From NCBI GenBank assembly GCA_000004695.1, contig CM000151.3, positions 7,520,001 to 7,584,000 of the forward strand: a DNA stretch of 64,000 bases, written 5' to 3'. Origin of the DNA: Dictyostelium discoideum. Its lineage: Eukaryota. The translations under genes were made by a program, and so were the position numbers. The notes under the pieces are model-generated. The model was given only the letters and a program-made list of their open reading frames with translations. It did not search any database and was not told the origin of the DNA. Shown piece after piece: positions 1,491-45,770 of this stretch. The first letter of the stretch is position 1. Each line of letters begins with the position of its first letter.

Positions 1491-2825
1491 TTATAGTTTT
1501 ATTTGGGGTAGATTTTTATCTACCTTTTGAAGTTTCTGGTTTATTTTGTCTTCTAACTGATCTTTACTTTGTTCGTTGTGTTGTTGGTCTTGTGTGTTTG
1601 TGGGGTTTTTTGATTTATTGATTTGTTTTAGAATTTCCTTGTTGAAGTTGTCTATATCTTCATCCATTTTTGTTTTTATGCTTTTTTGTCCATATTCACC
1701 CAATTTTGGTTTGACTGGTGTTTTGTTGGTCTTGTTTGTTTTGTCTTGTTGTTTCTTTTTTGGTGTGTTTAACAATTTACTTGGTGAATCGATAATTTTC
1801 GATGGTGTACCATAGGTTGGGCTGAAACTCATGATATGTTTTATTGGAGAGGAGAAGAACCATTGATTTGAAGGGATTGAAAGTGGGAATTCTATTTTTC
1901 TTATTGCATCAGTGTTTGGGCTGGTGAAGTCGAAGATATCATTTGCCTCTCTAAGTTTTTCTTCCGTTGTTAGTCCCTTTGTTTCGCCGTGTTGTTTTAT
2001 TGGTGTATTGTATGGAGATGGTGGTTCGATAGGTTTTTCTGATTTTGTTTTAATTTCTTGATTGTTTATCGATTGTGTATTGATCTCATTCTCTATTCTT
2101 GTTAGTTCATCTACGTTTTCTAGTGATGCTTCTATTACCTTTTGAGCTGTATCATCTAGGGCCATAAATGTTTTATCATTAGATGAGGATGTGATTGGTG
2201 GGATAATGATTGTTCTTTTTCCTTGTTTTGGTATTTGTTCTGATGTAGATTGTGGTTGTTGTTCATCTGATTGTTTTTTATTTTTGTTTTCTTCTTGATT
2301 TTCTGGTAATGAGGTTTGATCTCTCCATCCTTTGTTGGAGTGACCAATTAATGTTAGATTGTCTAGTTCAATGATAGTATCATATTCTTCTACGACTCTT
2401 TTCACTGTTTTGATAATTAGAGTTTCGCCTTTAATTTCAGATTTAATTAGTTTACATCCTTCATTTTCTATTACCCATTCTATTTCTGTGAGTGATTTAT
2501 ACCAATCGAAATCCGTATACATATTTTTTGGTCTTAGAGTGGTTATAAATTGTCCTTTTAATTCTGCATCGAACATATTTACAAAATAGATTACTGTACT
2601 AATACTGTCTGTGAGAATTTTGAATGTATTATTACTTTTGATTAAAACATCTTTTTTGTCCAAACTTTTTTCTAAATCTTTTTTTATTTTATCGTCTGGT
2701 TCGTGATTGATGTTTATGACGTATTTGAATTGTTTTTTTTTTAATTGAGTTTTATCCACAATTTCGCTTATTTTTTGTAGGCATTTGTGTTGCTTAATAT
2801 TTGTGGTGTTGTTTGTGATTTTCAT
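1491..2825 (-). CDS. Retrotransposon ORF1 protein (444 aa) of the TRE5-A-like element
   Basis: Uninterrupted 444-codon ORF starting MKITNNTTNIKQHKCLQKI. The same N-terminal sequence recurs in two truncated upstream copies, at 347-616 and 648-1094. Confidence 0.6.
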   Translation of the reverse strand: MKITNNTTNIKQHKCLQKISEIVDKTQLKKKQFKYVININHEPDDKIKKDLEKSLDKKDVLIKSNNTFKILTDSISTVIYFVNMFDAELKGQFITTLRPKNMYTDFDWYKSLTEIEWVIENEGCKLIKSEIKGETLIIKTVKRVVEEYDTIIELDNLTLIGHSNKGWRDQTSLPENQEENKNKKQSDEQQPQSTSEQIPKQGKRTIIIPPITSSSNDKTFMALDDTAQKVIEASLENVDELTRIENEINTQSINNQEIKTKSEKPIEPPSPYNTPIKQHGETKGLTTEEKLREANDIFDFTSPNTDAIRKIEFPLSIPSNQWFFSSPIKHIMSFSPTYGTPSKIIDSPSKLLNTPKKKQQDKTNKTNKTPVKPKLGEYGQKSIKTKMDEDIDNFNKEILKQINKSKNPTNTQDQQHNEQSKDQLEDKINQKLQKVDKNLPQIKL

Positions 2826-2900
2826 TTTATTTTCTTTCTATTTTTTATATTTTTCTTTAAAAAGTTAAAAATCTGGAAATTTTCTGATTAACTTGGTTCC

Positions 2901-2952
<52 letters not shown>

Positions 2953-2955
<3 letters not shown>

Positions 2956-4397
2956 TCTTTTTTATATGAAAAATGAAATAATCAAAAAAAGAGATTGTTG
3001 TTGTTGTTTGTTTTTTTTCGATCTGATTATTTTTTGCTTTTTTTTGAAAATTTTGCTACGCAAAATTCTCAAAACGAAACAAATAATAAATTACAATAAA
3101 GTAAAAAGATGGCTTTTTAAGATAGTTTATTTATTTATTTATTTGTTTTTTAAGTCTTTTTTATATGAAAAATGAAATAATCAAAAAAAGAGATTGTTGT
3201 TGTTGTTTGTTTTTTTTCGATCTGATTATTTTTTGCTTTTTTTTGAAAATTTTGCTACGCAAAATTCTCAAAACGAAACAAATAATAAATTACAATAAAG
3301 TAAAAAGATGGCTTTTTAAGATAGTTTATTTATTTATTTATTTGTTTTTTAAGTCTTTTTTATATGAAAAATGAAATAATCAAAAAAAGAGATTGTTGTT
3401 GTTGTTTGTTTTTTTTCGATCTGATTATTTTTTGCTTTTTTTTGAAAATTTTGCTACGCAAAATTCTCAAAACGAAACAAATAATAAATTACAATAAAGT
3501 AAAAAGATGGCTTTTTAAGATAGTTTATTTATTTATTTATTTGTTTTTTAAGTCTTTTTTATATGAAAAATGAAATAATCAAAAAAAGAGATTGTTGTTG
3601 TTGTTTGTTTTTTTTCGATCTGATTATTTTTTGCTTTTTTTTGAAAATTTTGCTACGCAAAATTCTCAAAACGAAACAAATAATAAATTACAATAAAGTA
3701 AAAAGATGGCTTTTTAAGATAGTTTATTTATTTATTTATTTGTTTTTTAAGTCTTTTTTATATGAAAAATGAAATAATCAAAAAAAGAGATTGTTGTTGT
3801 TGTTTGTTTTTTTTCGATCTGATTATTTTTTGCTTTTTTTTGAAAATTTTGCTACGCAAAATTCTCAAAACGAAACAAATAATAAATTACAATAAAGTAA
3901 AAAGATGGCTTTTTAAGATAGTTTATTTATTTATTTATTTGTTTTTTAAGTCTTTTTTATATGAAAAATGAAATAATCAAAAAAAGAGATTGTTGTTGTT
4001 GTTTGTTTTTTTTCGATCTGATTATTTTTTGCTTTTTTTTGAAAATTTTGCTACGCAAAATTCTCAAAACGAAACAAATAATAAATTACAATAAAGTAAA
4101 AAGATGGCTTTTTAAGATAGTTTATTTATTTATTTATTTGTTTTTTAAGTCTTTTTTATATGAAAAATGAAATAATCAAAAAAAGAGATTGTTGTTGTTG
4201 TTTGTTTTTTTTCGATCTGATTATTTTTTGCTTTTTTTTGAAAATTTTGCTACGCAAAATTCTCAAAACGAAACAAATAATAAATTACAATAAAGTAAAA
4301 AGATGGCTTTTTAAGATAGTTTATTTATTTATTTATTTGTTTTTTAAGTCTTTTTTATATGAAAAATGAAATAATCAAAAAAAGAGATTGTTGTTGT
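2953..4397. repeat. Tandem array of 7.2 copies of a 199-bp unit (TRE5-A A-module, which contains the promoter)
   Basis: ORF-track artefacts at 2966, 3165, 3364, 3563, 3762, 3961 and 4160 are exactly 199 bp apart and have identical translations. The last partial copy ends in ...gagattgttgttgttgtttctatgatttcag at about 4397. Confidence 0.9.
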
Positions 4398-4450: not shown

Positions 4451-4521
4451 GGGAGATTAGTTAAGTGGTATAATGCTACCTTTGGGTGGTAGCGTCCTGA
4501 GTTCGATTCTCGGATCTCCCC
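4451..4521 (+). tRNA. tRNA-Pro (anticodon UGG), 71 nt, no encoded CCA, followed by a T-rich Pol III terminator
   Basis: Hand-folded cloverleaf. Acceptor GGGAGAT pairs with ATCTCCC. D-stem is GTTA/TAAT with a GG-containing loop. Anticodon stem is CTACC/GGTAG with loop TTTGGGT (U33, anticodon TGG, G37). T-arm is CTGAG-TTCGATT-CTCGG. Discriminator C is followed by 'attctttta'. Confidence 0.75.
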
Positions 4522-5813: not shown

Positions 5814-7903
5814 TAAATTTAATGATAAAGACAATTGATTTGAATCATTTAAATTTGAATTTGAATGTAATTGTGGTAACATAACAACAGGAAAACCATT
5901 ATGTGGACAAGTTTCTAAAATTGTTAAAGCTGTTTTAACTTTTACAATTTCAGGTAAAGTTTTTACATCAGTTGACATTGCTTCAGCAACGGTTTTCTTT
6001 CTAAGATGATTTGGTGGTTGACTATTTAAGTAAGGGATATGTTTTAATTCAATTAAATGTTCATAAATACTTTCATTGAAAATGTCACCACACCATTTAC
6101 CAACCATTACAGATAAAATTACAGGTAAAAGATATTGAGTAGTTTCTGTAAGTTCAACGATAATAACAACCAATGAAATTGTCATTCTTAATGAACCAGC
6201 CATCATACTAGCGGCACCAATTAGGGCATAGATTGAAGGATCGATCGATGTGAAATATTTTGATAAAAATATACCAATTAATCTACCCCAAGAACTACCA
6301 ATTAACATCATTGGAATGAAAATACCACTTGCAACATATAAACCACTTGTAATAATAGTCAAAACATAATAAAATATTGAAAATGTTAAAAGTGTTTGAG
6401 CTGTGAAAATATTTGTTGATCTACTGAATACAATTTGTAAAGAATTCTCCAAGGTTGTTAATGTTAATGTTGCCATTGGATTATAATAACCCTCGGCACA
6501 ATTGAATTGATTTAAAATCAGTGTAGAATCATCACCTGGGTCACATGTACCCGGTGTTAATCCTGATATACCACTGATGGGTCTACAATCTGCTAATAGA
6601 GCTGGAAAGAAACAAACTACTGATGACAATATTACAATTACACAAACTTCTATCATTTTATAAAGTTTTGATTTATTTGCAAATAATTTCTTTCTCCAAT
6701 GATTGACACGTACATTAACATGTACGAAAATGGCACCTAATAAGCCACCAATAATACCCATAATCATAAATGGTATCAACTCAGTGTAGGTGTAAAGATA
6801 GGATTTTGAAACACCAAATGTCAATACACCATAGTCATGAATTTGTTGAGTGAAACCTTGTAAAAACAAATTTGCAGTCATGGTTGCAATTAGACAGGAG
6901 AAAAAGGTACGCCATGTTAACTGACGAGACCAAAATGATGAGCCCTCTTCCAAGCAAAACAAAACCCCACCAATTGGTGCACCAAAAGCTGCAGCAATAC
7001 CAGCAGCAGCACCACATGATATAAAATCACGTTTATCACTATCGTTTTGAAAGATCCAAAATGATTTCAAGTGAAATTTCAATGTTTTCGATTTGAATTG
7101 ACTCATTGATGATCCAATACCTGCACCAATATGAAACATTGGTCCCTCTGGTCCCAATACTAATCCCGATGAAAATGAAAATATTAATGATACCAATTTA
7201 CCCAATACTGTTTTCAAATTGAATGCTTTTGAAATTCTTATTCCATTTAAATAACCTTTTACTTCTGGTAAACCTGATGAACTTGACATTGGTCCAAATA
7301 TACAAACTAATAAACCACTAATTAAACCATAACATAAATTAAATCCTAAATAAACTAAAAATGGTATAAATATTGTTGATTCTGTTGAATAAACTATAGT
7401 TTTAAAAATAAAAAGAAATAAAATTATAGTTGTTAATAAATTTTATAAAAATTTTTTTTTTATTTTTTTTTTTTATTTTTTTTTTCAAAAAAAAACTTAC
7501 ACTTTTTAACTTGAGTTAATTTAAGTGATTGTAATTGATCAACAGATTCTTTTAAACAATAACAAACTAAACCAACAACGACACCAATTAGAGTACAAAT
7601 TACCCATTTACCTAAAGTTTTTAAAATTTTTTGATATTTCTTTTTTTCAAATGTATATTTCCTATGAATTATATTATCGATTGCATTAAAATCTAAACTT
7701 TCAAAATGACTCATCAATTCTCTATCGGTTTTAGTTGTCATTTTATGATGTCTTCTATGAGTTATTGATGTCTGATTACCTCCAAAAAAGTTTTTACCAC
7801 TAAAAAATCCATTATCTGTATCACAATCTTTATTTCCATCAATATTTAATAATAAATAATCATTACCATTTATTGCCGTACCTGCTTTATAATTATTACT
7901 CAT
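5349..7903 (-). CDS. ClC-family voltage-gated chloride channel/antiporter with C-terminal CBS domains. Model is complement(join(5349..7354,7501..7903)), about 802 aa.
   Basis: Exon 1 (7903->7501) encodes an ...[11 protein letters not shown]... N-terminus and one TM helix. The donor is aag t|GTAAGT at 7500 and the acceptor is tttttAG| at 7355, giving a 146-bp AT-rich intron in phase 1. Exon 2 carries the ClC signatures G(S/L)PEVK, GPEGP and GxFxP, then a CBS pair split by a 28x AAT (poly-N) tract. Confidence 0.8.
5737..5820. repeat. (AAT)28 coding microsatellite encoding poly-N in the ClC CBS-domain linker
   Basis: A perfect run of attattatt... on the plus strand, which reads AAT codons on the minus strand. 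Confidence 0.9.
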
Positions 7904-9426: not shown

Positions 9427-10048
9427 TTTAATAGCGAAGAGGATGAAAGTGATACAATGACAAGTTCAAGTTCTAATAGTAGTACTAGTACTAGTGGTAG
9501 TGGTGCTTGTAGTAGTAATAATATTAATATTAATAATAATAATAATAAAATTAAATATAAAATTATATCAGTTAATAATGAATTATCATTTTTACCAAAT
9601 TCAACACAAATTTTAAAAGAAGGTTGGTTTTGTTCAACAAAATTCTCACATCAAACAACATCATTATTATATTTATTAAAACAAATTCATAATAAAGTTG
9701 ATGATAGGGTAATTGAAATCATTAAATCATTAGATATTTTAAAATTTTTAAAAGATTGGATAACCTCAATAAATGATTTAAATGATAAATCAATTCAATT
9801 ATTAAATAAATCAAATCATTTAATAATAAATAGATCAAAAAGTAATTTTAAAAATAATCAAAATCAAAATAATAATAATAATAATGTAAATGTAAATATT
9901 AATGAAGAAATTATTAAAAGTGGTAATGATAATACACATTTTGAAATCCAATTGCCAATTGGTTTAATTAAATCATTATATTGTAAATTAATAAGATTAA
10001 AAAATGAATTTAATAAATTAATTATACCATTATCACCAAATCTAAAAG

Positions 10049-10087
<39 letters not shown>

Positions 10088-11283
10088 TTAATAATAATAA
10101 AAATGAAATTAAAAATAAAAATAAAACACATTGGGAATTATTAGAAATTATTGAACCAATTGTATCAAATAGGTATTGGATTAATCGTAGTAATAATAAT
10201 AATAATAAAAAAGAAGGAAATGAAAAAAGAAAAAATCAAAATTGTCAAGAATTATTTGAAAAATTTGAAAAGATTAAAAATGATCAATATTTAATAATTG
10301 ATCAAGAATTACCATTATTATCAACATTGATAAATGAGAGTAGAGTTAAATCGTATTATAAACAAAATGATATTTCAACAAGTTTGCCAACTTCAATAAT
10401 ACTATTAAATGAATTGAATATAATTATTAATGAATTAAAAATGGTTAAAGAATTTAATGATGATATCGTGGGTTCAAAATTACTAAACTCATTTGAAAAA
10501 GAGAAGAAATTATCATTACTAAATTTCACAAGTATAATAATAGAAGAGTATGTTAACAATAATCTATCAAACCAAGTTTGGACAAAGTTTGAAAAAATCA
10601 TATTTAAAATATTATCAAACTCAAATGATCTTAGAAATATTGTTATTAGGAATAGTGTACAACTATTCACAAATAAATTATTCAATACGGTTCAATCGTT
10701 ATCGGTATTAAGGAAAATTAAACTAGTTAATTGTTTGAATTTAACTGATTTTTCAAATCACTCTGATTTAGGCGGTGAATTGAAGTTACCATCTTTATCG
10801 AAATTACAATTAATAGATTGTAAAAATTTAAAAACAATTTCTTTAACTGCTTATAACTTACATTCAATTAAAATTACAAATTGTATGGATTTAGTTGAAT
10901 ATCAAATTTATTCACCTGAATTGTTTAAATTGGTTTATCAATTCTCTTTAATCAATTTAAATAATTATATTAAGTTTTCAAATTGTTCTTATTTACAATT
11001 TATTGATATTAGTAATTGTAAATTAGTTAAAGAATCAATTACAACTTTAGATTTAAATAAATGGAAATATCTTGTTGATTTAAAAGCTGAAAATGTACAA
11101 TTCCTTGAAAAAATCATTTTAACTGAAAATTTAATTTATCTTCAATCTTTAGATTTTACAAATTGTCAATCATTCAATGAAATCATTTTTAAACAAAATA
11201 GTTGTTTAAATTTAAAAAAATTAATTTTAATTGGTACTCAAATTCAAAATCAAGAAATTCAATTAATAAATTTATTAAAATAA
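8689..11283 (+). CDS. Leucine-rich-repeat protein of 864 aa, single exon, with several poly-N tracts
   Basis: ATG-initiated uninterrupted ORF. The C-terminal ~250 aa are cysteine-containing LRRs of FBXL/Skp2 type (LxxLxLxxCxxL...). No F-box is recognisable by eye. Confidence 0.6.
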
Positions 11284-18754: not shown

Positions 18755-19236
18755 ATTTATTATTTAGTATAATTATACAATTGAAAAATTATAAATTGAG
18801 ATTTCTTTTTGTTGGTGATAGGTATTCAATAGATACACGAACTTTCAAATCATTTTTCAATTTCTTTTATTTACCAATTGTTAAAACTCATTTTATTTTA
18901 TTTTTATCTCTTACATATCTCTTTTTCTATTAATAATAAAAATAATAATATTACAAAAAAAAAAAAAAAACAAAAAAAAAAAAAAAAAAAACAAAATAAA
19001 ACAATATTTTTTTAAAAAAAAAAAAAAAAAAGAAAATTTATATTTTTAAATAATTTTTTTATACAACTAATAACTCTTTTATTTATTTTTTTATTTATAG
19101 TCATTATTTTTTTTTTTTGAACCTGTTAATAATAATAATAAATAAAAAAATGATTAGAAAAATCCAGTTTTTTTTTTTTCTTTTTTTTTTTTTTTTATTT
19201 TCTATTTTTTTTTTTTAATAACATTTAAGATAGTTT

Positions 19237-19309
19237 GTCAGACAATAAAAATAAGGAACAAAGTTTTTTGTCGTCATCGTGGTCGGTGTGAGCTGAGGAA
19301 TACATCATT
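19237..19309 (-). ncRNA. Box C/D snoRNA candidate, copy 1 (~73 nt core, with a 13-15-bp terminal stem spanning 19223..19323)
   Basis: Minus strand reads 5'-cattTAAGATAGTTT-a-ATGATGT(box C)-attcctcagctcacaccgaccacg-ATGACGA(C'-like)-caaaaaactttgttccttatttttattgt-CTGA(box D)-c-AAACTATCTTAaatg-3'. The flanks are perfect inverted repeats that bring the C and D boxes together. Confidence 0.6.
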
Positions 19310-19516
19310 AAACTATCTTAAATGAATTTAAAATAAAAATAGTTTTAAAATAAAACTTACCAATTGAAAACAAAGAAAAAAAAAAAAGTTTGGAAAAATG
19401 AAAAAGTAAAAAAGAAAAAGTAATCTATTTTTAAAAAAAGAAAATTTATATTAGAATTTGCTATTAAAATATAATTAAAATAAATTTAATTGATTCAATG
19501 CCATGTATAAATTTTT

Positions 19517-19589
19517 GTCAGACAATAAAAATAAGGAACAAAGTTTTTTGTCGTCATCGTGGTCGGTGTGAGCTGAGGAATACATCATT
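19517..19589 (-). ncRNA. Box C/D snoRNA candidate, copy 2 (core identical to copy 1, different flanks with a weaker terminal stem)
   Basis: A 73-nt core identical to copy 1 lies 280 bp away. The same C box (AUGAUGU) and D box (CUGA) are present. Confidence 0.5.
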
Positions 19590-19871
19590 GAATTATTTTT
19601 GTCTCTTTTTTTTTTTTTTTTTTTTTTCAAAAAACAAATAATAGCGATAATTATAAAACTTACCAAAATAACTCTTATGCAAAAAAGCGATCAGAAATGA
19701 AAATGAAAAAAAAAAAAAAAAAATTCTTTTTGAAAAAAAAAAAAAAATTTTTAAAAAAAAAAAGAAAATAAAAAAAATTCTTTTTAAAAAAAAAAAAAAA
19801 AAAAACGAGTGTTGAAATTATTGCCCGACCTTTTTCTAAAAAGTTTTAAAATTTTATAATTTTTATAATAA

Positions 19872-35132: not shown

Positions 35133-37414
<2,282 letters not shown>

Positions 37415-37710: not shown

Positions 37711-38988
37711 TTAAGAAGCTGATGTATAGAAATATCTTGTTCTATAGACATTTAAATAGTTAATTAAAATATCAATTAATGTTTTAAAGATATGAATCTT
37801 TTTCAAAAAGTTTAAAAATTTGTTTAATAAACCATCACCAATAAACTTTTCATAGAATGGTGATCTAATTAAATAGAAAAAAAGTAATTTCTTTCTTCTA
37901 TTCAATTCTTTGGCTTCCAATAAGGTTAATCGTATTTTCTGTTTAAAATTTCCATATTCTGAAAATGATTTGCTTAATAATTCAGTAACTAATGATAAAA
38001 ACCATGGTTTCCAAGACTTTTTACCAAATATACAATATGAAACCCCTAAAAAATTATTAAAATAAAATAAATTAGTATATATGTGTGTGTCTTTTTATTT
38101 ATTTTTTAAATAATACATACAATAAATAACAGGTCTAAATATAAATAAAATCTCACCAATAGTTTTTGTATTATAATCTTTTGGTGGTGGAGGTGGTAAT
38201 AATTTAATTAATGTTGATTCGTTTTGTTGTAATTCTCTCTGTTGTTGATATAATAAATTATTTTCTTGGTTTACAATTCGTTGTTGTTCAAATATTTGAT
38301 CTGATAATGTTCTTCTATTATTATTATTATTATTATTATTATTAAAATTATCATCGTTTGTATTATTATTATTATTAATATTATTATTATCATTATTATT
38401 AATATTATTATTATTATTTATTGACATTGTTACAGCTGGTCTTTTATTTTGGAATTGTTTTTGTTGATTTCGATTATTTTCAAGTATTGTTTTTACATCT
38501 TTTGAAGGTACATAAAATGAATGATGTACCAACATATCACCATTTGTTTTAATTAATAGTTTTAAACGTAAAATTGCTTTTAATAATTCAATTATAAATA
38601 TTATCATCTTTTTAATATTATTATTACTATTATTGTTATTACTATTACTATCGTCATGTTGTTCTCCTTTTTTTGTTGCTAACATTTCAAAGAATAATTC
38701 TAAACTTTGCACTGTTGTAATCCAACGTAAAGTTGTTAAATAATAGGGTGGTGGTACTTTTTCACCATTTGATATTTTATCGATATTATTTGATAATAGA
38801 ATTCCTGATGACCTATAATCTAAATATGATTGCAATATATTTGCTACACTATAAAGACCTTCACTAAACAATTCAGAATCACCATATCTACCTGGTAAAA
38901 ATGTAATTAATGATTTTAATAATCCCAAATGATCACTATTCTCTAATAAAAATATTAAAATATTTGATTTTGGTTGTTTTGGAATCAT
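37711..38988 (-). CDS. pex16: Peroxisomal membrane protein PEX16. Model is complement(join(37711..38045,38121..38988)), about 400 aa.
   Basis: The donor ...cct gtt att tat t|GTATGT and acceptor tttAG|gggtttc give phase 1. The junction restores ...IGEILFIFRPVIYWVSYCIFGKKSWKPWFLSLVTELLSKSF...RRKKLLFFYLIRSPFYEKF..., which matches human PEX16 IAEFLYIARPLLH...[21 protein letters not shown]...RRTILLLYYLLRSPFYDRF and the C-terminal ...YFY motif. Confidence 0.85.
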
Positions 38989-39688: not shown

Positions 39689-39691
<3 letters not shown>

Positions 39692-42546
39692 CAATCTGAT
39701 ACGTTGACTGTACAAACTGTACCAAATACAACGAATGTAACGAATACTGAGCATTCAATGTTAGCAGTATGTATATTTATCACCCCCTTTCCTTTCATTT
39801 TTTATTAATTTAATAATAACAATTATAAAATAAACTAATAAATAAAAATTATAGAAAATTGAAGAAAATAGACATATTATTCAAACTATATGGGAAAAAC
39901 AAAATTTAGGTAAATTAACAGAATGTGAACAATTTCAAAAAAGATTACATAGTAATCTTTTATTATTAGCTCCATTAGCTGATCACCAACAAAATTATCA
40001 TGTAAGTGAAAAAAAAAAAAAAAAAACAAAAAAAGCAAAGCAAAGAGTTATACTAACTATGATTTTAATCAATTATTAATGAATAGAAACAACAACAAGC
40101 ATTACTACAGCAACAACAGCAACAACAACAAGCATTACTACAACAACAGCAACAATCACCAGTTACAAATGTAGCAACCAATACACCACCAACTTTACAA
40201 CACTCAATTTCATCACCATCACCAAATAATTTTAACAATAATAATAATGCAAATAATCAATTCCTTTCACCTAATAGTCCTCAAGTTGCAAAATCATCAC
40301 CTTCTCAAAACAATCCATCAACACCAATTGCCAATACTCCAACAACAACAACAACAACAGCCGCAACAACAGCCACAAACACTAATACGATGATGAGTGG
40401 AAGTAGTGGCGGAGTGGTATCACCAGTTTCAAATCAGCAACAACAACAATCGATTCAGTCACCATCACAACAATCAGTTGTACAAAGATCACCATCACAA
40501 TCATTAAATTCATCAGCATCGTCAATTCAAAGTTTACAAAATATTCAAAATACTCAAAATACAATTCAACAATTAACAAACTCTCTAACACAAGTTAAAA
40601 CTATAATTCAACAATATCAATCACAAAATCAACAAGTACCACAAGATGTAATCTCTAGATATCATGAATTCTATTCAATGTTGCAACAACAACAACAAAA
40701 CCTATTACAACAACAATCTTTATTACAACAGCAACAAGCTTTATTACAACAACAACAAGTTGGAAACCCAATGCAACAAAGTAATGATATGCAACCACAA
40801 ACACCACAACAAAATAATATGCAACAACAACAACAACCACAAACACCACAACAAACAAATATGCAACAACCTCAAACTCCACAACAAAATAGTATGCAAC
40901 CATCTCAACAACCAATTACTCAACAAGAATATCAACAAATTTATGATAAAATAGTATCAATGAGTTCACAGATATTATTGTGTAATCAAAATATACAAAA
41001 ATTACAAAGTGAATCCTATGATCCACACGTTTTACAAGGATTACAAAATCAAGTTGCAAATTTAGAGATTGCTCAAGCAAATAGTCTTAGATTCTTACCT
41101 CAACAATATCATGTCGTACTATTCCAACAACAACAGCAACAACAAGCCAATCAACAACAATTACAATTAATGCAAATTAAACAATCAAAGGAATATATGG
41201 TTTTAACACCTGCTCAACAATTAATTTATAATCAACAAATTCAACAAAATCATTACAATCAACAAGTTATACTGAGACAACAACAACAAAAATTAATGGC
41301 AATATTGGAACAACAAAATCAAATGATAGCACAACAACAACAACAACAACATCAAATGCATCAACAACATCAAATGCAACCACAGCAACAACAACAACAA
41401 CATCAAATGCATCAACAATCACCACAACAACCACAACAAATGGGAATGGGAGGTAACCCACCATCACTTGAAATGATATCACCAATGTCTGCTGTAATGA
41501 ATGGTGTAACTAGTCCAATGAATCAAGGGATGATGAGTAGTAATAATGGTATGCCAACAATAACAACATCATTATCTGCAATTTCTCCAACCTCACCAAT
41601 TGGTACAAATTTAAATATGTCCAATCCAACTACAACCACAGTAGCAAATGTCACCACCACCGCAGCCACTACCACCACTGCTTCATCATCTGGTAAAGAG
41701 GAGAAAGAAAAGAAAAAAGATAAAAAAGATAAAGATAAAGATAAGGATAAGGATGATGATGATAAAGAATCTAAAAAAGATAAAAAAGATAAGAAGGATA
41801 AAAAAGCAAGTAAAGAGAAAACTTCGCATTGGACATCCGAAGAACATAATAAATTTTTAGAAGCAGTTCAACAATTTGGTATTAAAGATTACCATGCCAT
41901 AGCTAAATTTGTTCAAACTAGAAATCATCATCAAGTTAGAACTCATGTAAATACTTATTTAAAAAATCAAAAGAAAGCTGAAGCTGCAACATCTTCAACT
42001 CAAGTTAGTACTCCACAACAACAATTACCAATAGTTGGTACTCCACAACAATCTGTTGGTACTCCACAACAACAACAACCACCAATTGAACAAACACCAC
42101 CACCACCACAACAACAACAACAACCACCACAATTAACACCAGAACAACAATTAGCTTCACAACAACAACAAGCAACATTACAATTTCAACAATATCAACA
42201 ACCACAAGATCAACAACAGCAACAATATCAACAATATCAACAATATGATCCTCAACAACAACAACAACAACCACAACAACAACCTCCACCACCACAAACC
42301 ACTCCCCCAAATAATGAAAATAATAATAATATTAATAATAATTTAGAAAACACTAATAATAACGATAATGGTAACAATAATAATAATGAATATAATAGTG
42401 GATTTGATTCAAATAGTGGGTTGAATGACGAGATGGGAATAGGATTATTTGGATCACCTGGTAATAATAGCAATAATAATTTAGGAATTTCCATTGAAGG
42501 TAATAATTTTGATGACAATCCATCAATCTCTTCCCCAGGTGTATAA
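39689..42546 (+). CDS. Gln-rich transcription-coactivator-like protein with an N-terminal SS18/SYT SNH domain and a C-terminal Myb/SANT (SHAQKYF-class-like) domain. Model is join(39689..39766,39855..40001,40087..42546), about 894 aa.
   Basis: Exon 1 is MQSDTLTVQTVPNTTNVTNTEHSMLA|GTATGT. Exon 2 KIEENRHIIQTIWEKQNLGKLTECEQFQKRLHSNLLLLAPLADHQQNYH|GTAAGT matches the human SS18 SNH domain ENNHLIQCIMDSQNKGKTSECSQYQQMLHTNLVYLATIADSNQNMQ. Exon 3 is a poly-Q/PQ-rich region, a KD-rich linker, then SHWTSEEHNKFLEAVQQFGIKDYHAIAKFVQTRNHHQVRTHVNTYLKNQKK (Myb/SANT). All junctions are phase 0 and in frame. Confidence 0.7.
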
Positions 42547-42880: not shown

Positions 42881-43698
42881 AAAAAAAATTAAATAAAAAT
42901 AAAAATAGAAATAGAAATAAAAATAAAAATAAAAATAAAAATAAAAATAAAAATAAAAATAAAAATAAAAATGAAAATGGAATTAATTTTTTTTTTTTTT
43001 GGAATTCAACTCCAAGCTTAATCTAAAGAAAAAAAAAGACGTAATAAATATCCTTCTTCTATAAAAATCTGTGAGAAAATATGGAGTGGGTTCTGTGGGA
43101 AAAATTAAAAAAAATTTTGATGATTTGTTTCCAACCAGGATATTGTGTTCCAAAAGGAACCATCTTAATCTTATGGAATGCACAATACCAAAATATCAGG
43201 GTGTGAAAATTGATTTTTTTTCAATTTTTTTTTTTATTTTTTTTTTTTTATTTTTTTTTTTTTAGTTTTTTTTAACAGATTTGAACAATTTATTATATTT
43301 TTTTTTAGTTTTTTATTTTTTTTATACTAAAACATAAATCCTTTATGTTTGGGTAAGTTTCACATATGTAATAATATATATTATTATTTTTGAAAAAACA
43401 TTTTCTATTTTTTTTTATTTATTTTTTTATTTATTTTTATTCATTAAGTAGAGACTTCCCAAATTGGCAAAACTACAATTTAAATGATAATACTATAAAA
43501 AAAAAAAATAAATAAAAAAAAAAACAAATAAAAAAAGGAATAAAAAAAAAGGAATTAAGAACACCACATTTATTTTAAAGAAAGATGATAATTTTTAAAA
43601 AATTTTTTTTTTTTTTTAATAATTAAAAAAATAATGGTCCACCACACAATTTAATGTTTTTTTTATTTTTTTTATAAGTAATAAGATTTAATTGTTTT

Positions 43699-44057: not shown

Positions 44058-45770
44058 ATGACACCCAGAATTGAAAGTGAGGAATCTGCTCCTCTAGTAA
44101 ATAAAAACAACAACAATAATAACGATAATAATAATAATAATAATGTTGATGAAGAAAACCCTTTAATAATAGAAAGTGGTATTCCAATTGAAGATTTAGA
44201 ACAAAAAAATAAACCATATTTAATTAAAGTACCAAATATTGATAAACCAGATTCTGTAAGTTTTTATTTTTCATTTTTTTTTTTTTTTTTTTTATTAATA
44301 ATAATAATAATAATAAAAATTATTTATTAATTTTTTATTTCTTTTTTTTTTTTAATTAAAAAAAAGAAATGGATAAATTTTAAAACATTATGGGCATTTA
44401 CAGGACCAGGATTTTTAATGAGTATAGCATATTTAGATCCTGGTAATTTAGAGAGTGATATTCAAGCAGGAGCAATGGCAGGATATCAATTACTTTGGGT
44501 ATTATTTTGGTCAACAGTTATTGGATTTTGGTTACAAATGTTAGCATCAAGATTGGGTGTTGTAACAGGTAAACATTTAGCTGAACATTGTAGAGAACAA
44601 TATCCAAAGACACCAAGGCTATTGTTATGGTTAATGACAGAGTTGGCCATTATAGGTAGTGATATTCAAGAGGTTATCGGTACTGCGATTGCCTTGCAAA
44701 TCTTATCGAATGGACATATACCATTATGGGCTGGTGTATTATTCACTGCAGCTGATACATTCACATTTTTATTTTTAGAGAAATATGGTATTAGAAAGTT
44801 GGAGGCATTCTTTTGCTCCTTGATTGCAATCATGGCCATTTCTTTTGGTGTAGAATACATCATTAGCAAGCCCGACCAAATTGAGGTGGTAAAAGGTGTA
44901 TTCATACCATTATGCTCACAGAACAACATTTCCCAAGCTGTGGGTATCTTGGGGGCAGTTGTAATGCCACATAATATCTACTTACATAGCGCTTTGGTAC
45001 AGTCAAGAGAAATCGATAGAAAGAGTGAAACTCAAGTAAAAATCGCAAATAAATACAATCGTTTAGAATCTGCATTCGCATTGATCATCTCTTTTATTAT
45101 TAATCTATTATTGGTATCAGTTTTCGCTAAAGGATTCTATGGAGAAACTACAGAGATTGGGTTATCATCGGCTGCTGATTTCCTTATGGACAAGTATGGT
45201 AAGGTTGCAAAATACATTTGGGCAATCGGTTTATTTAGTGCTGGTCAATGCTCGACTATGACAGGTACCTATAGTGGTCAATTTGTAATGGAAGGTTTCT
45301 TAAAATTAAAAATCGCACCTTGGAAAAGATTATTAATCACCCGTTGTACCGCTATCGTTCCTGCTATGGTTGTTGCTATATTATCGACTTCTCATTTGGA
45401 TTCTTTAGATCAATGGTTAAACATTTTGCAAAGTATTCAATTACCCTTTGCAGTGGTACCTGTATTATTATTTACAAGCTCTGAGAAAATTATGGGTTCA
45501 AAATTTAAAAATCATTGGTTAAATAATCAATTTGTTAGATTTTTATCACTATTAATCATTGCAATCAACATTTATTTAATTATCACTTTCTCAATGCAAA
45601 TCTCTGAATCAGCTTGGATGATTTCAATAGTTTCAATATCTTTCTTTTTTTATTTCATTTTCATAGTTTATTTATCAATGGGTCAAGAAAACTTTAATTC
45701 TATGACTAAAAAAATCAAAAATTTATTTAATAATAATTCAAATCAAACTTATAATAATATTAATTATTAA
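44058..45770 (+). CDS. nramp1: Nramp-family divalent-metal transporter. Model is join(44058..44255,44367..45770), 533 aa.
   Basis: The donor ...gat tct|GTAAGT and acceptor aaaaAG|aaatgg are phase 0. Exon 2 opens with the Nramp signature KWINFKTLWAFTGPGFLMSIAYLDPGNLESDIQAGA followed by 10-12 TM helices. The 533-aa length matches what I recall for Dictyostelium Nramp1. Confidence 0.75.

Follow-up and report, generated by a model that had tools for sequence, protein, structure and literature searches.

SS18- and GIF-type proteins are understood as adaptors that require a separate DNA-binding partner, and a DNA-binding domain of their own is typically absent. The gene at positions 39689-42546 (plus strand) of a 64,000-nucleotide window of the Dictyostelium discoideum genome raises the question of whether one protein can be both adaptor and DNA-binding factor, because it encodes an SNH (SSXT) domain at one end and a Myb repeat toward the other. 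The answer that we consider probable is that the product, MybK, is a dictyostelid SS18/GIF (SMARCL) coactivator carrying a single SHAQKYF-class Myb repeat, and thus links SWI/SNF to DNA in one polypeptide. The locus is D. discoideum mybK (DDB_G0276877), adjoining nramp1, and the mass and pI of the predicted product agree with those of that gene. mybK was previously catalogued; its SNH-Myb architecture is a variant newly recognised here. Rfam and tRNA scans gave no match within the mybK locus.

The splice model has three exons, all on the plus strand, and yields a product of 894 aa without an internal stop. Exon 1 (39689..39766, 26 codons) begins at the first in-frame ATG downstream of an extended run of A and is followed by a GT donor at 39767. 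Its final residues form the beginning of SNH helix 1. Exon 2 (39855..40001, 49 codons) carries the SNH/SSXT domain, and exon 3 (40087..42546, 819 codons plus a TAA stop) is an uninterrupted ORF with coding-level GC throughout, encoding a Q-rich spacer, a charged linker, the Myb repeat, and then a Q/P/N-rich tail. Intron 1 (39767..39854, 88 nt, 84% AT) and intron 2 (40002..40086, 85 nt, 81% AT) are both GT..AG and phase 0, and the length of every exon is a multiple of three. The preliminary description had proposed one continuous gene over the identical span, with no stop between the domains and consistent splice phases; this model bears it out, as does a second NCBI assembly (identical DNA) in which the same 894-aa gene was called independently.

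When the N-terminal 86 aa were scanned in isolation, the SSXT profile PF05030 matched residues 28-75 (E = 5.6e-16, 58.3 bits; gathering cutoff 26.2 bits). The match corresponds to nt 39858-40001, wholly inside exon 2, to which the domain had originally been assigned. By phmmer, human SS18 in the SS18-BRG1 crystal structure (PDB 7VRB) matched the MybK SNH domain at 46 bits (E = 1.6e-11), and about half of the 50 aligned residues were identical. Triple mutation of I32, L54, and A65 in SS18 largely disrupts BRG1 binding (PMC9117659); the 7VRB alignment pairs these residues with I35, L57, and A68 of MybK, all three being the same amino acid. Exon 2 as the sole query gave 196 library matches, the best 150 of which were all SSXT proteins.

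The domain is easily overlooked. The SSXT match was absent from a default-filter HMMER scan of full-length MybK because it is removed by the HMMER bias filter; our own SNH profile run with --nobias scored 70.4 bits on the full-length protein. A naive run of the HMMER check suggested in the preliminary description, PF05030 against the spliced product, would therefore have led to the domain being wrongly dismissed, although the check is significant on the isolated N-terminus. Since the filter takes a 58-70-bit domain out of a Q-rich protein, short domains can be under-reported in domain censuses, a risk that extends to Dictyostelium and other low-complexity-rich proteomes. In a 2022 survey of SWI/SNF, SS18/SMARCL was recorded as absent from D. 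discoideum (PMC9170682), and loss through the bias filter may explain that score. As the same survey reported no SSXT protein for this species (PMC9170682), MybK is apparently the sole candidate SS18 homologue in D. discoideum. In literature searches combining Dictyostelium with SSXT, the SNH domain, or SS18, no paper described the domain in mybK.

An orthologue in another dictyostelid, which the preliminary description had suggested looking for, is present in Polysphondylium violaceum. With nramp1 as the synteny anchor, loci were recovered from D. discoideum and P. violaceum; in both species the gene lies between pex16 and nramp1, and the P. violaceum orthologue (860 aa) is annotated as one gene with both SSXT and Myb domains, its SNH scoring 43.5 bits with PF05030. 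The site of intron 1 within the SNH domain matches that in the P. violaceum orthologue and in a metagenomic SNH-Myb gene (P0239, on contig L009). The D. discoideum and P. violaceum proteins are 52% identical over the SNH, 62% identical over the Myb domain, and ≤34% identical elsewhere with Q-Q matches excluded; spacer length is kept (579 aa vs about 575 aa). Judged from this sequence comparison, selection acts on the two ends of the protein, SNH and Myb. Among other dictyostelids, the D. purpureum contig stops 1.3 kb upstream of nramp1, tblastn found no mybK-like sequence at the Heterostelium album nramp locus, and the two nramp loci of Acytostelium subglobosum have different neighbours and, in their gene tables, no obvious candidate. 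A D. dimigraforme match (a 99-aa fragment) was rejected as an orthologue, being a non-syntenic, frame-shifted partial copy. mybK orthologues have been listed for representative species of all four dictyostelid groups, and mybK was placed among the cell-type-specific rather than the constitutive transcription factors (Forbes et al. 2019). The listed orthologues include DPU_G0071950, DLA_07223, PPL_05536, PPL_05147, and DFA_10142.

Beyond dictyostelids, the combination of domains is rare, as the preliminary description had expected of so unusual an architecture. Only 3 of the 150 closest SSXT proteins (the best 150 of the 196 matches) have a Myb domain and 147 do not, and a metagenome scan with an SNH-Myb alignment recovered 80 marine SNH loci, all of them lacking a Myb within 3 kb. 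The best SNH match, P0122 (metagenome contig L008), was set aside as uninformative, being a 53-aa ORF with no Myb nearby. Three short proteins of other eukaryotes contain SSXT and Myb domains within 180-264 aa: P0253 (EukProt transcript GILK01006659.1), P0239 (ENA metagenome contigs L009-L011), and P0250 (a Logan contig). The SNH and Myb of P0239 share a single unbroken exon in each of three separate metagenome assemblies, and P0253 has a near-canonical recognition helix, RSHLQKYL (TIGR01557 51.5 bits).

The Myb/SANT repeat of MybK is single (41827..41961, plus strand; aa 656-700) and belongs to the SHAQKYF class by profile. PF00249 matched residues 656-700 with E = 1.8e-10 and 41.2 bits in the full-length scan (41.2-47.1 bits overall; cutoff 24.4 bits), and TIGR01557 (myb_SHAQKYF) scored 37.2 bits against a cutoff of 29.3 bits, so that the SHAQKYF-class-like repeat first noticed near the 3' end is recovered by both profiles. 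The recognition (third) helix is without the SHAQK(Y/F)F signature, reading RTHVNTYL in D. discoideum and RTHVITYQ in P. violaceum, and of the class motif only the His and Tyr are retained in these dictyostelid helices; with THVNTYL in place of SHAQKYF, the Lys and Gln of the motif are therefore lost. The domain is basic (pI 9.5, net charge +3), with Arg, His, Asn, and Lys in helix 3, and its structure model has three helices (pLDDT about 80). We infer that the repeat binds DNA, and the pI of 9.5 is consistent with sequence-specific binding.

Myb-like folds also serve other ends, and SANT domains are common in remodelling complexes. MybK could accordingly be a constitutive SS18-type SWI/SNF subunit and not a gene-specific transcription factor, its Myb-like repeat being a SANT-type module that makes non-sequence-specific contacts with histone tails, with nucleosomal DNA, or with another subunit. 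We regard this as a serious alternative, albeit a rather unlikely one. Foldseek with the Myb model returned SANT domains as readily as DNA-binding Myb domains, those of ISWI, Ada2, CoREST, and the BAF subunit SMARCC being among the top matches; no match of either kind reached E ≤ 0.001. Degeneration of the SHAQKYF signature to THVNTYL points the same way, as do the Myb repeats of P0239 and P0250, both of which fail TIGR01557, and the near-neutral P0239 domain (pI 6.0), whose third helix is acidic or hydrophobic. That MybK is apparently the only SSXT protein of D. discoideum (PMC9170682) would likewise suit a constitutive subunit. On the other hand, the Myb domain is basic across D. discoideum, P. 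violaceum, and P0253 (pI 9.5-10.2), the SHAQKYF-class DNA-binding model is passed by three of five SNH-Myb family members, and the best PDB sequence matches are the DNA-binding Myb repeats of c-Myb, B-Myb, and Trichomonas and Entamoeba Myb proteins. Histone-binding SANT domains, in contrast, are typically acidic, and a SANT domain of a chromatin-modifying complex is expected to have a hydrophobic or acidic third helix. Nor does a constitutive role agree with the listing of mybK as cell-type-specific (Forbes et al.). The THVNTYL helix, the SANT-like fold matches, the failure of P0239 and P0250 with TIGR01557, and the pI of 6.0 in P0239 count against the reading of MybK as a link between SWI/SNF and DNA.

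A second alternative concerns the other end of the protein. Here MybK would be a Q-rich Myb factor whose two domains work separately, or whose SNH no longer serves SWI/SNF, the hairpin binding some other QLQ-like partner or nothing. The PF05030 scores of the dictyostelid SNH domains (58 and 43.5 bits) are indeed below those of the short homologues P0253, P0239, and P0250 (62-73 bits), and the P. violaceum SNH is substituted at several otherwise conserved positions. We nevertheless find this improbable, because the SNH, at 52% identity between D. discoideum and P. violaceum, ranks second in conservation among the parts of the protein, all three residues important for BRG1 binding are kept, and ten alignment columns show no variation among human SS18 and five SNH-Myb proteins.

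That the fusion is an annotation artefact, in which two genes or transcripts with an internal start or poly(A) site at 40.1-41.6 kb are merged by a chance ORF, is very improbable: CAA-rich low-complexity sequence does often lack stop codons in its own frame by chance, but exon 3 is open over 819 codons in that frame only, no second gene is seen within the ORF and its GC (26-42%) never falls to that of the flanking intergenic DNA (6-18%), it contains one AATAAA vs nine in the 300 nt past the stop, two independent annotations give 894 aa, and the same architecture occurs both in the single 860-aa gene at the syntenic P. violaceum site and on the one exon of P0239 in its three metagenome assemblies.

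The intervening sequence was initially described as a poly-Q spacer of about 600 aa, which is roughly right as to length and composition (579 aa, 25.7% Gln); the spacer is not featureless, however, in that long helices are predicted at aa 216-297 and 354-409 (single-sequence AlphaFold2, pLDDT 79-90). Its composition is Q/S/N/T-rich with only 2.2% Gly and 1.7% Tyr, and so is neither of the QG nor of the QPGY type. The first predicted element is a helical hairpin (40507..40752, plus strand; aa 216-297; pLDDT 79-87), which has only 30% identity to P. violaceum with Q-Q matches excluded; the second helical region (40921..41346, plus strand; aa 354-495) includes the motif NSLRFLPQQY, common to P. 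violaceum. A Pfam scan of both predicted helical parts gave nothing significant. The model was built from one sequence, rich in Q and L, and its confidence in these helices may be too high, a possibility that counts against the reading of MybK favoured here.

Directly upstream of the Myb repeat is a charged linker rich in Lys, Asp, and Glu (41692..41820, plus strand; aa 611-653), in place of which P. violaceum has a Ser/Lys-rich stretch. This linker may serve in nuclear localisation or in contacting the DNA backbone. The low-complexity C-terminal tail (41980..42543, plus strand; aa 707-894; 25% Q, 13% P, 16% N) contains a short Q/P/Y-rich stretch at aa 773-800 and is not conserved in P. violaceum.

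If MybK does link SWI/SNF to DNA, its N-terminal SNH hairpin would pack on a putative QLQ helix of the Snf2/Brahma ATPase, as in SS18-BRG1 and in plant GIF-GRF/BRM, and the basic Myb repeat would contact DNA. By analogy with QG in GIF and QPGY in SS18, the Q-rich spacer could provide activation or self-association. A single polypeptide would in this way direct the remodeller to particular DNA sites, a task for which plants use two, GIF and the DNA-binding GRF. A broader proposal, which we advance only tentatively, is that MybK is the missing SS18/SMARCL subunit of Dictyostelium SWI/SNF and belongs to an ancient, largely overlooked eukaryotic lineage in which SNH is fused to a sequence-specific Myb. 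As a single-chain equivalent of GRF-GIF, such a protein would target the remodeller without a separate transcription factor partner, and Q-rich composition might be hiding further domains from Pfam/InterPro surveys of dictyostelids. If true, the inventory of SWI/SNF subunits across evolution would gain a missing entry, with mybK as a concrete SMARCL candidate for D. discoideum. SS18 is a driver of synovial sarcoma, and GRF-GIF serves to boost plant regeneration; with SNH and Myb on a single chain in an amoeba amenable to genetics, SNH-mediated recruitment of SWI/SNF to defined DNA sites could be studied in a simple system.

Among known systems, human SS18 and SS18L1 (CREST), the SMARCL subunits of BAF/ncBAF, resemble MybK in that a two-helix SNH hairpin stands at the N-terminus, with a long Gln-rich low-complexity region behind it. 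They differ in that SS18 has no DNA-binding or SANT domain, whereas MybK adds a C-terminal Myb repeat, and in that the low-complexity region of SS18 is of the Tyr/Gly-rich QPGY type, whereas the MybK spacer is Q/S/N/T-rich with predicted long helices. The plant GIF1/AN3-GRF pair follows the same logic as that proposed for MybK, an SNH and Q-rich activation region being coupled to a DNA-binding domain that brings SWI/SNF to its targets. In plants the SNH of GIF binds the QLQ domain of GRF; the DNA-binding WRC domain is thus on a separate protein, joined by a non-covalent QLQ-SNH contact, whereas MybK has its candidate DNA-binding Myb domain in the same chain, and neither a QLQ nor a WRC domain. 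Plant GIFs have been placed within SMARCL (PMC9170682).

From the Myb side, the closest comparison is with the SHAQKYF-class 1R-Mybs (e.g., Dictyostelium MybE, plant CCA1/LHY/RVE, potato MybSt1, and Entamoeba EhMybS3), which like MybK have one TIGR01557-matching repeat; EhMybS3 (PDB 6NVZ) matches the MybK repeat both by sequence (E = 2.1e-5) and by fold. The signature helix of the class is SHAQKYF, in contrast to THVNTYL in MybK, and none of these factors is known to carry an SNH domain. The short SNH-Myb proteins P0253, P0239, and P0250 have both domains in the same order as MybK and have in common with it the G-x-x-D and [ST]R[ST]xx[QE]V motifs in the Myb repeat, but at 180-264 aa their linkers are roughly 25-105 aa vs 579 aa in MybK. 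Lastly, yeast Snf11, S. pombe Snf30, and C. thermophilum Snf80 are structural or functional equivalents of SNH on the Snf2 QLQ helix (PMC9117659; PMC13580576). These proteins lack a Myb domain and are either small or of unrelated sequence, whereas MybK is a true sequence-level member of the SSXT family.

mybK (DDB_G0276877) lies on chromosome 2 of D. discoideum, where hand splicing of the region read (38.8-43.4 kb of the window) gave plus-strand exons at 39689-39766, 39855-40001 and 40087-42546. All three exon lengths are multiples of three, the two AT-rich introns have GT..AG borders, and the 894-residue product has no stop between its domains; the span (39689-42546), open frame and splice phases are those of the preliminary description. 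A second assembly (GCA_054883475.1) is identical in DNA over the gene and carries a gene call of the same span and length. The computed mass (100,910 Da) and pI (6.31) identified the gene as mybK, an already catalogued Myb-family gene for which a literature search found no described function. Upstream, pex16 (38095-38988, minus strand) is divergent, ~700 bp start to start; the other flank is nramp1 (44418-45770, plus strand), whose ORF (44418-45767) is 100% identical to AX4 Nramp1. The 6-18% GC spacer between mybK and nramp1 contains a ~30% GC island at 43000-43200, with short ORFs only and no match in Rfam or tRNA scans, which may represent a small gene missed in annotation, a regulatory sequence or a noncoding RNA. 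The window also holds two tandem minus-strand copies of the Dictyostelium C/D-box snoRNA DdR11 (19236-19311 and 19516-19591; 106-107 bits), a plus-strand tRNA-Pro(TGG) (4451-4521), and a plus-strand ORF (35133-36059) that closes with some 50 Tyr codons in a row (a TAT repeat); rather than coding for genuine poly-Tyr, the frame here probably runs on into an intron of an annotated 686-aa gene.

The SHAQKYF-class-like Myb repeat proposed near the 3' end was recovered at residues 656-700, which match Myb_DNA-binding (PF00249) at 41-47 bits and the SHAQKYF-class model TIGR01557 at 37.2 bits (cutoff 29.3); the signature helix reads THVNTYL, not SHAQKYF. Single-sequence AlphaFold2 gave the expected three helices (pLDDT ~80). 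The domain is basic (pI 9.5), and its closest solved relatives by sequence are DNA-binding Myb repeats, among them c-Myb, B-Myb and the Entamoeba SHAQKYF protein 6NVZ. By fold, the SANT domains of ISWI, Ada2, CoREST and SMARCC score about equally and no match reached E≤0.001, so that fold does not separate a DNA-binding from a SANT-type role. A SANT-type chromatin contact within a constitutive subunit is a less probable alternative to DNA binding.

The isolated N-terminal 86 residues matched Pfam SSXT (PF05030) with E=5.6e-16 and 58.3 bits (cutoff 26.2); the match, residues 28-75, is encoded wholly by exon 2, as first described. Against the human SS18 chain of the SS18-BRG1 crystal structure (7VRB), the N-terminal segment scored 46 bits (E=1.6e-11), with about half of 50 aligned residues identical. 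SS18 residues I32, L54 and A65 pack with the BRG1 QLQ helix into hydrophobic cores, and their triple mutation largely disrupts BRG1 binding (PMC9117659); all three are conserved, as MybK I35, L57 and A68. Set beside this conservation, a different partner for the SNH domain, or no function at all, appears improbable.

A default full-length Pfam scan finds only the Myb domain in the D. discoideum and Polysphondylium violaceum proteins alike, and precomputed Pfam annotation is empty for both genes. Our own SNH profile, built from the best 150 of 196 exon 2 matches, likewise failed to match full-length MybK under default filters and scored 70.4 bits with --nobias or --max; the HMMER composition-bias filter is thus the cause of the lost match. 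That a 58-70-bit SSXT match is removed from a full-length Q-rich protein, and is regained with --nobias or by scanning a fragment, points to a general blind spot when proteomes rich in low-complexity sequence are surveyed for domains. A 2022 inventory of SWI/SNF subunits scored D. discoideum as lacking SMARCL (SS18/GIF; PMC9170682, Supplementary Table); the SNH-Myb architecture implies that an SS18 homologue is present in Dictyostelium after all. Both appear unreported: in the literature searched, none of SSXT, 'SNH domain' and SS18 was linked in this sense to Dictyostelium, although InterPro may already flag the domain.

With Nramp1 as synteny anchor, we reached a P. violaceum orthologue (L004 5627-8414), an annotated 860-aa gene between pex16 and nramp1, reconstructed with four exons; the order pex16-mybK-nramp1 is common to both species, whereas neighbours differ at the fetched nramp loci of Heterostelium and Acytostelium. 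Its N-terminal segment matches SSXT at 43.5 bits, a match likewise lost in the full-length scan, and its C-terminal part matches Myb at 50 bits and TIGR01557 at 35.2 bits. Identity between the two proteins is 52% in SNH and 62% in Myb, and ≤34% elsewhere with Q-Q matches excluded; with spacer length preserved, this comparison indicates selection on the two ends of the protein. Orthologues are also listed for D. purpureum, D. lacteum, P. pallidum and D. fasciculatum (Forbes et al. 2019). On a Dictyostelium dimigraforme contig (GCA_054859025.1, JBTAPM010000041.1), part of the 3' half of mybK (window 41446-42035) recurs at 9836-10359, outside the syntenic position and with frame shifts; neither the charged linker nor Myb helix 1 is present. 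This copy, annotated as hypothetical protein P0001 of 99 aa, resembles a pseudogene or dispersed duplicate; a second small fragment (6331-6577) lies 3.5 kb upstream.

The architecture is as unusual as had been supposed. When exon 2 alone was searched exhaustively with HMMER against 1.84 billion representative proteins, 196 matches reached E≤0.001; the best 150 were all SSXT proteins, only three of them with a Myb domain (P0253, 264 aa; P0239, 180 aa; P0250, 224 aa), and none of 80 further metagenomic SNH loci had Myb within 3 kb. The fusion is thus genuine and rare, and either old or recurrent. Dictyostelid orthologues were absent from the library matches though neighbouring genes were present, which we take as a property of the tool, not biology. 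P0253, from a EukProt transcriptome, has a near-canonical SHLQKYL helix (TIGR01557, 51.5 bits). P0239 belongs to a compact eukaryotic genome (57% GC) represented in three metagenome assemblies, with SNH and Myb on a single uninterrupted exon and a short first exon joined at the intron position common to the D. discoideum and P. violaceum genes. Its prokaryote-style call (ENA ERZ4903137 k141_3583242, 2690-3415; also L010 and L011) starts at an internal Met; the upstream exon, MATPTTAPPQKSLTGIPPGVSQEVVQK, is joined over a CT-rich intron at the SNH position of mybK intron 1.

This conservation elsewhere, the agreement of two annotations on 894 aa, exon 3 GC of 26-42% (never flank-like; flanks 6-18%) and one AATAAA in exon 3 versus nine in the 300 nt downstream of the stop argue strongly, if indirectly, for a single gene encoding both domains, and make a merger of two genes during annotation highly improbable.

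The poly-Q spacer, put at ~600 aa, comprises 579 residues (25.7% Gln) with no Pfam match. It is not uniform: AlphaFold2 gave long helices at residues 216-297 and 354-409 (pLDDT 79-90), another at 450-495 (~70), and pLDDT <50 outside these; a Lys/Asp/Glu-rich linker (611-653) precedes the Myb repeat.

Observation and interpretation in the preliminary description both stand. MybK is probably, in our moderately confident reading, the dictyostelid SS18/GIF-family protein, in which the SNH hairpin would dock on the Snf2 ATPase at its QLQ helix, the Myb repeat would contact DNA, presumably with sequence specificity, and the Q-rich, partly helical spacer would supply activation or self-association. 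As such, MybK would be the equivalent, in a single chain, of the GRF-GIF pair of plants.
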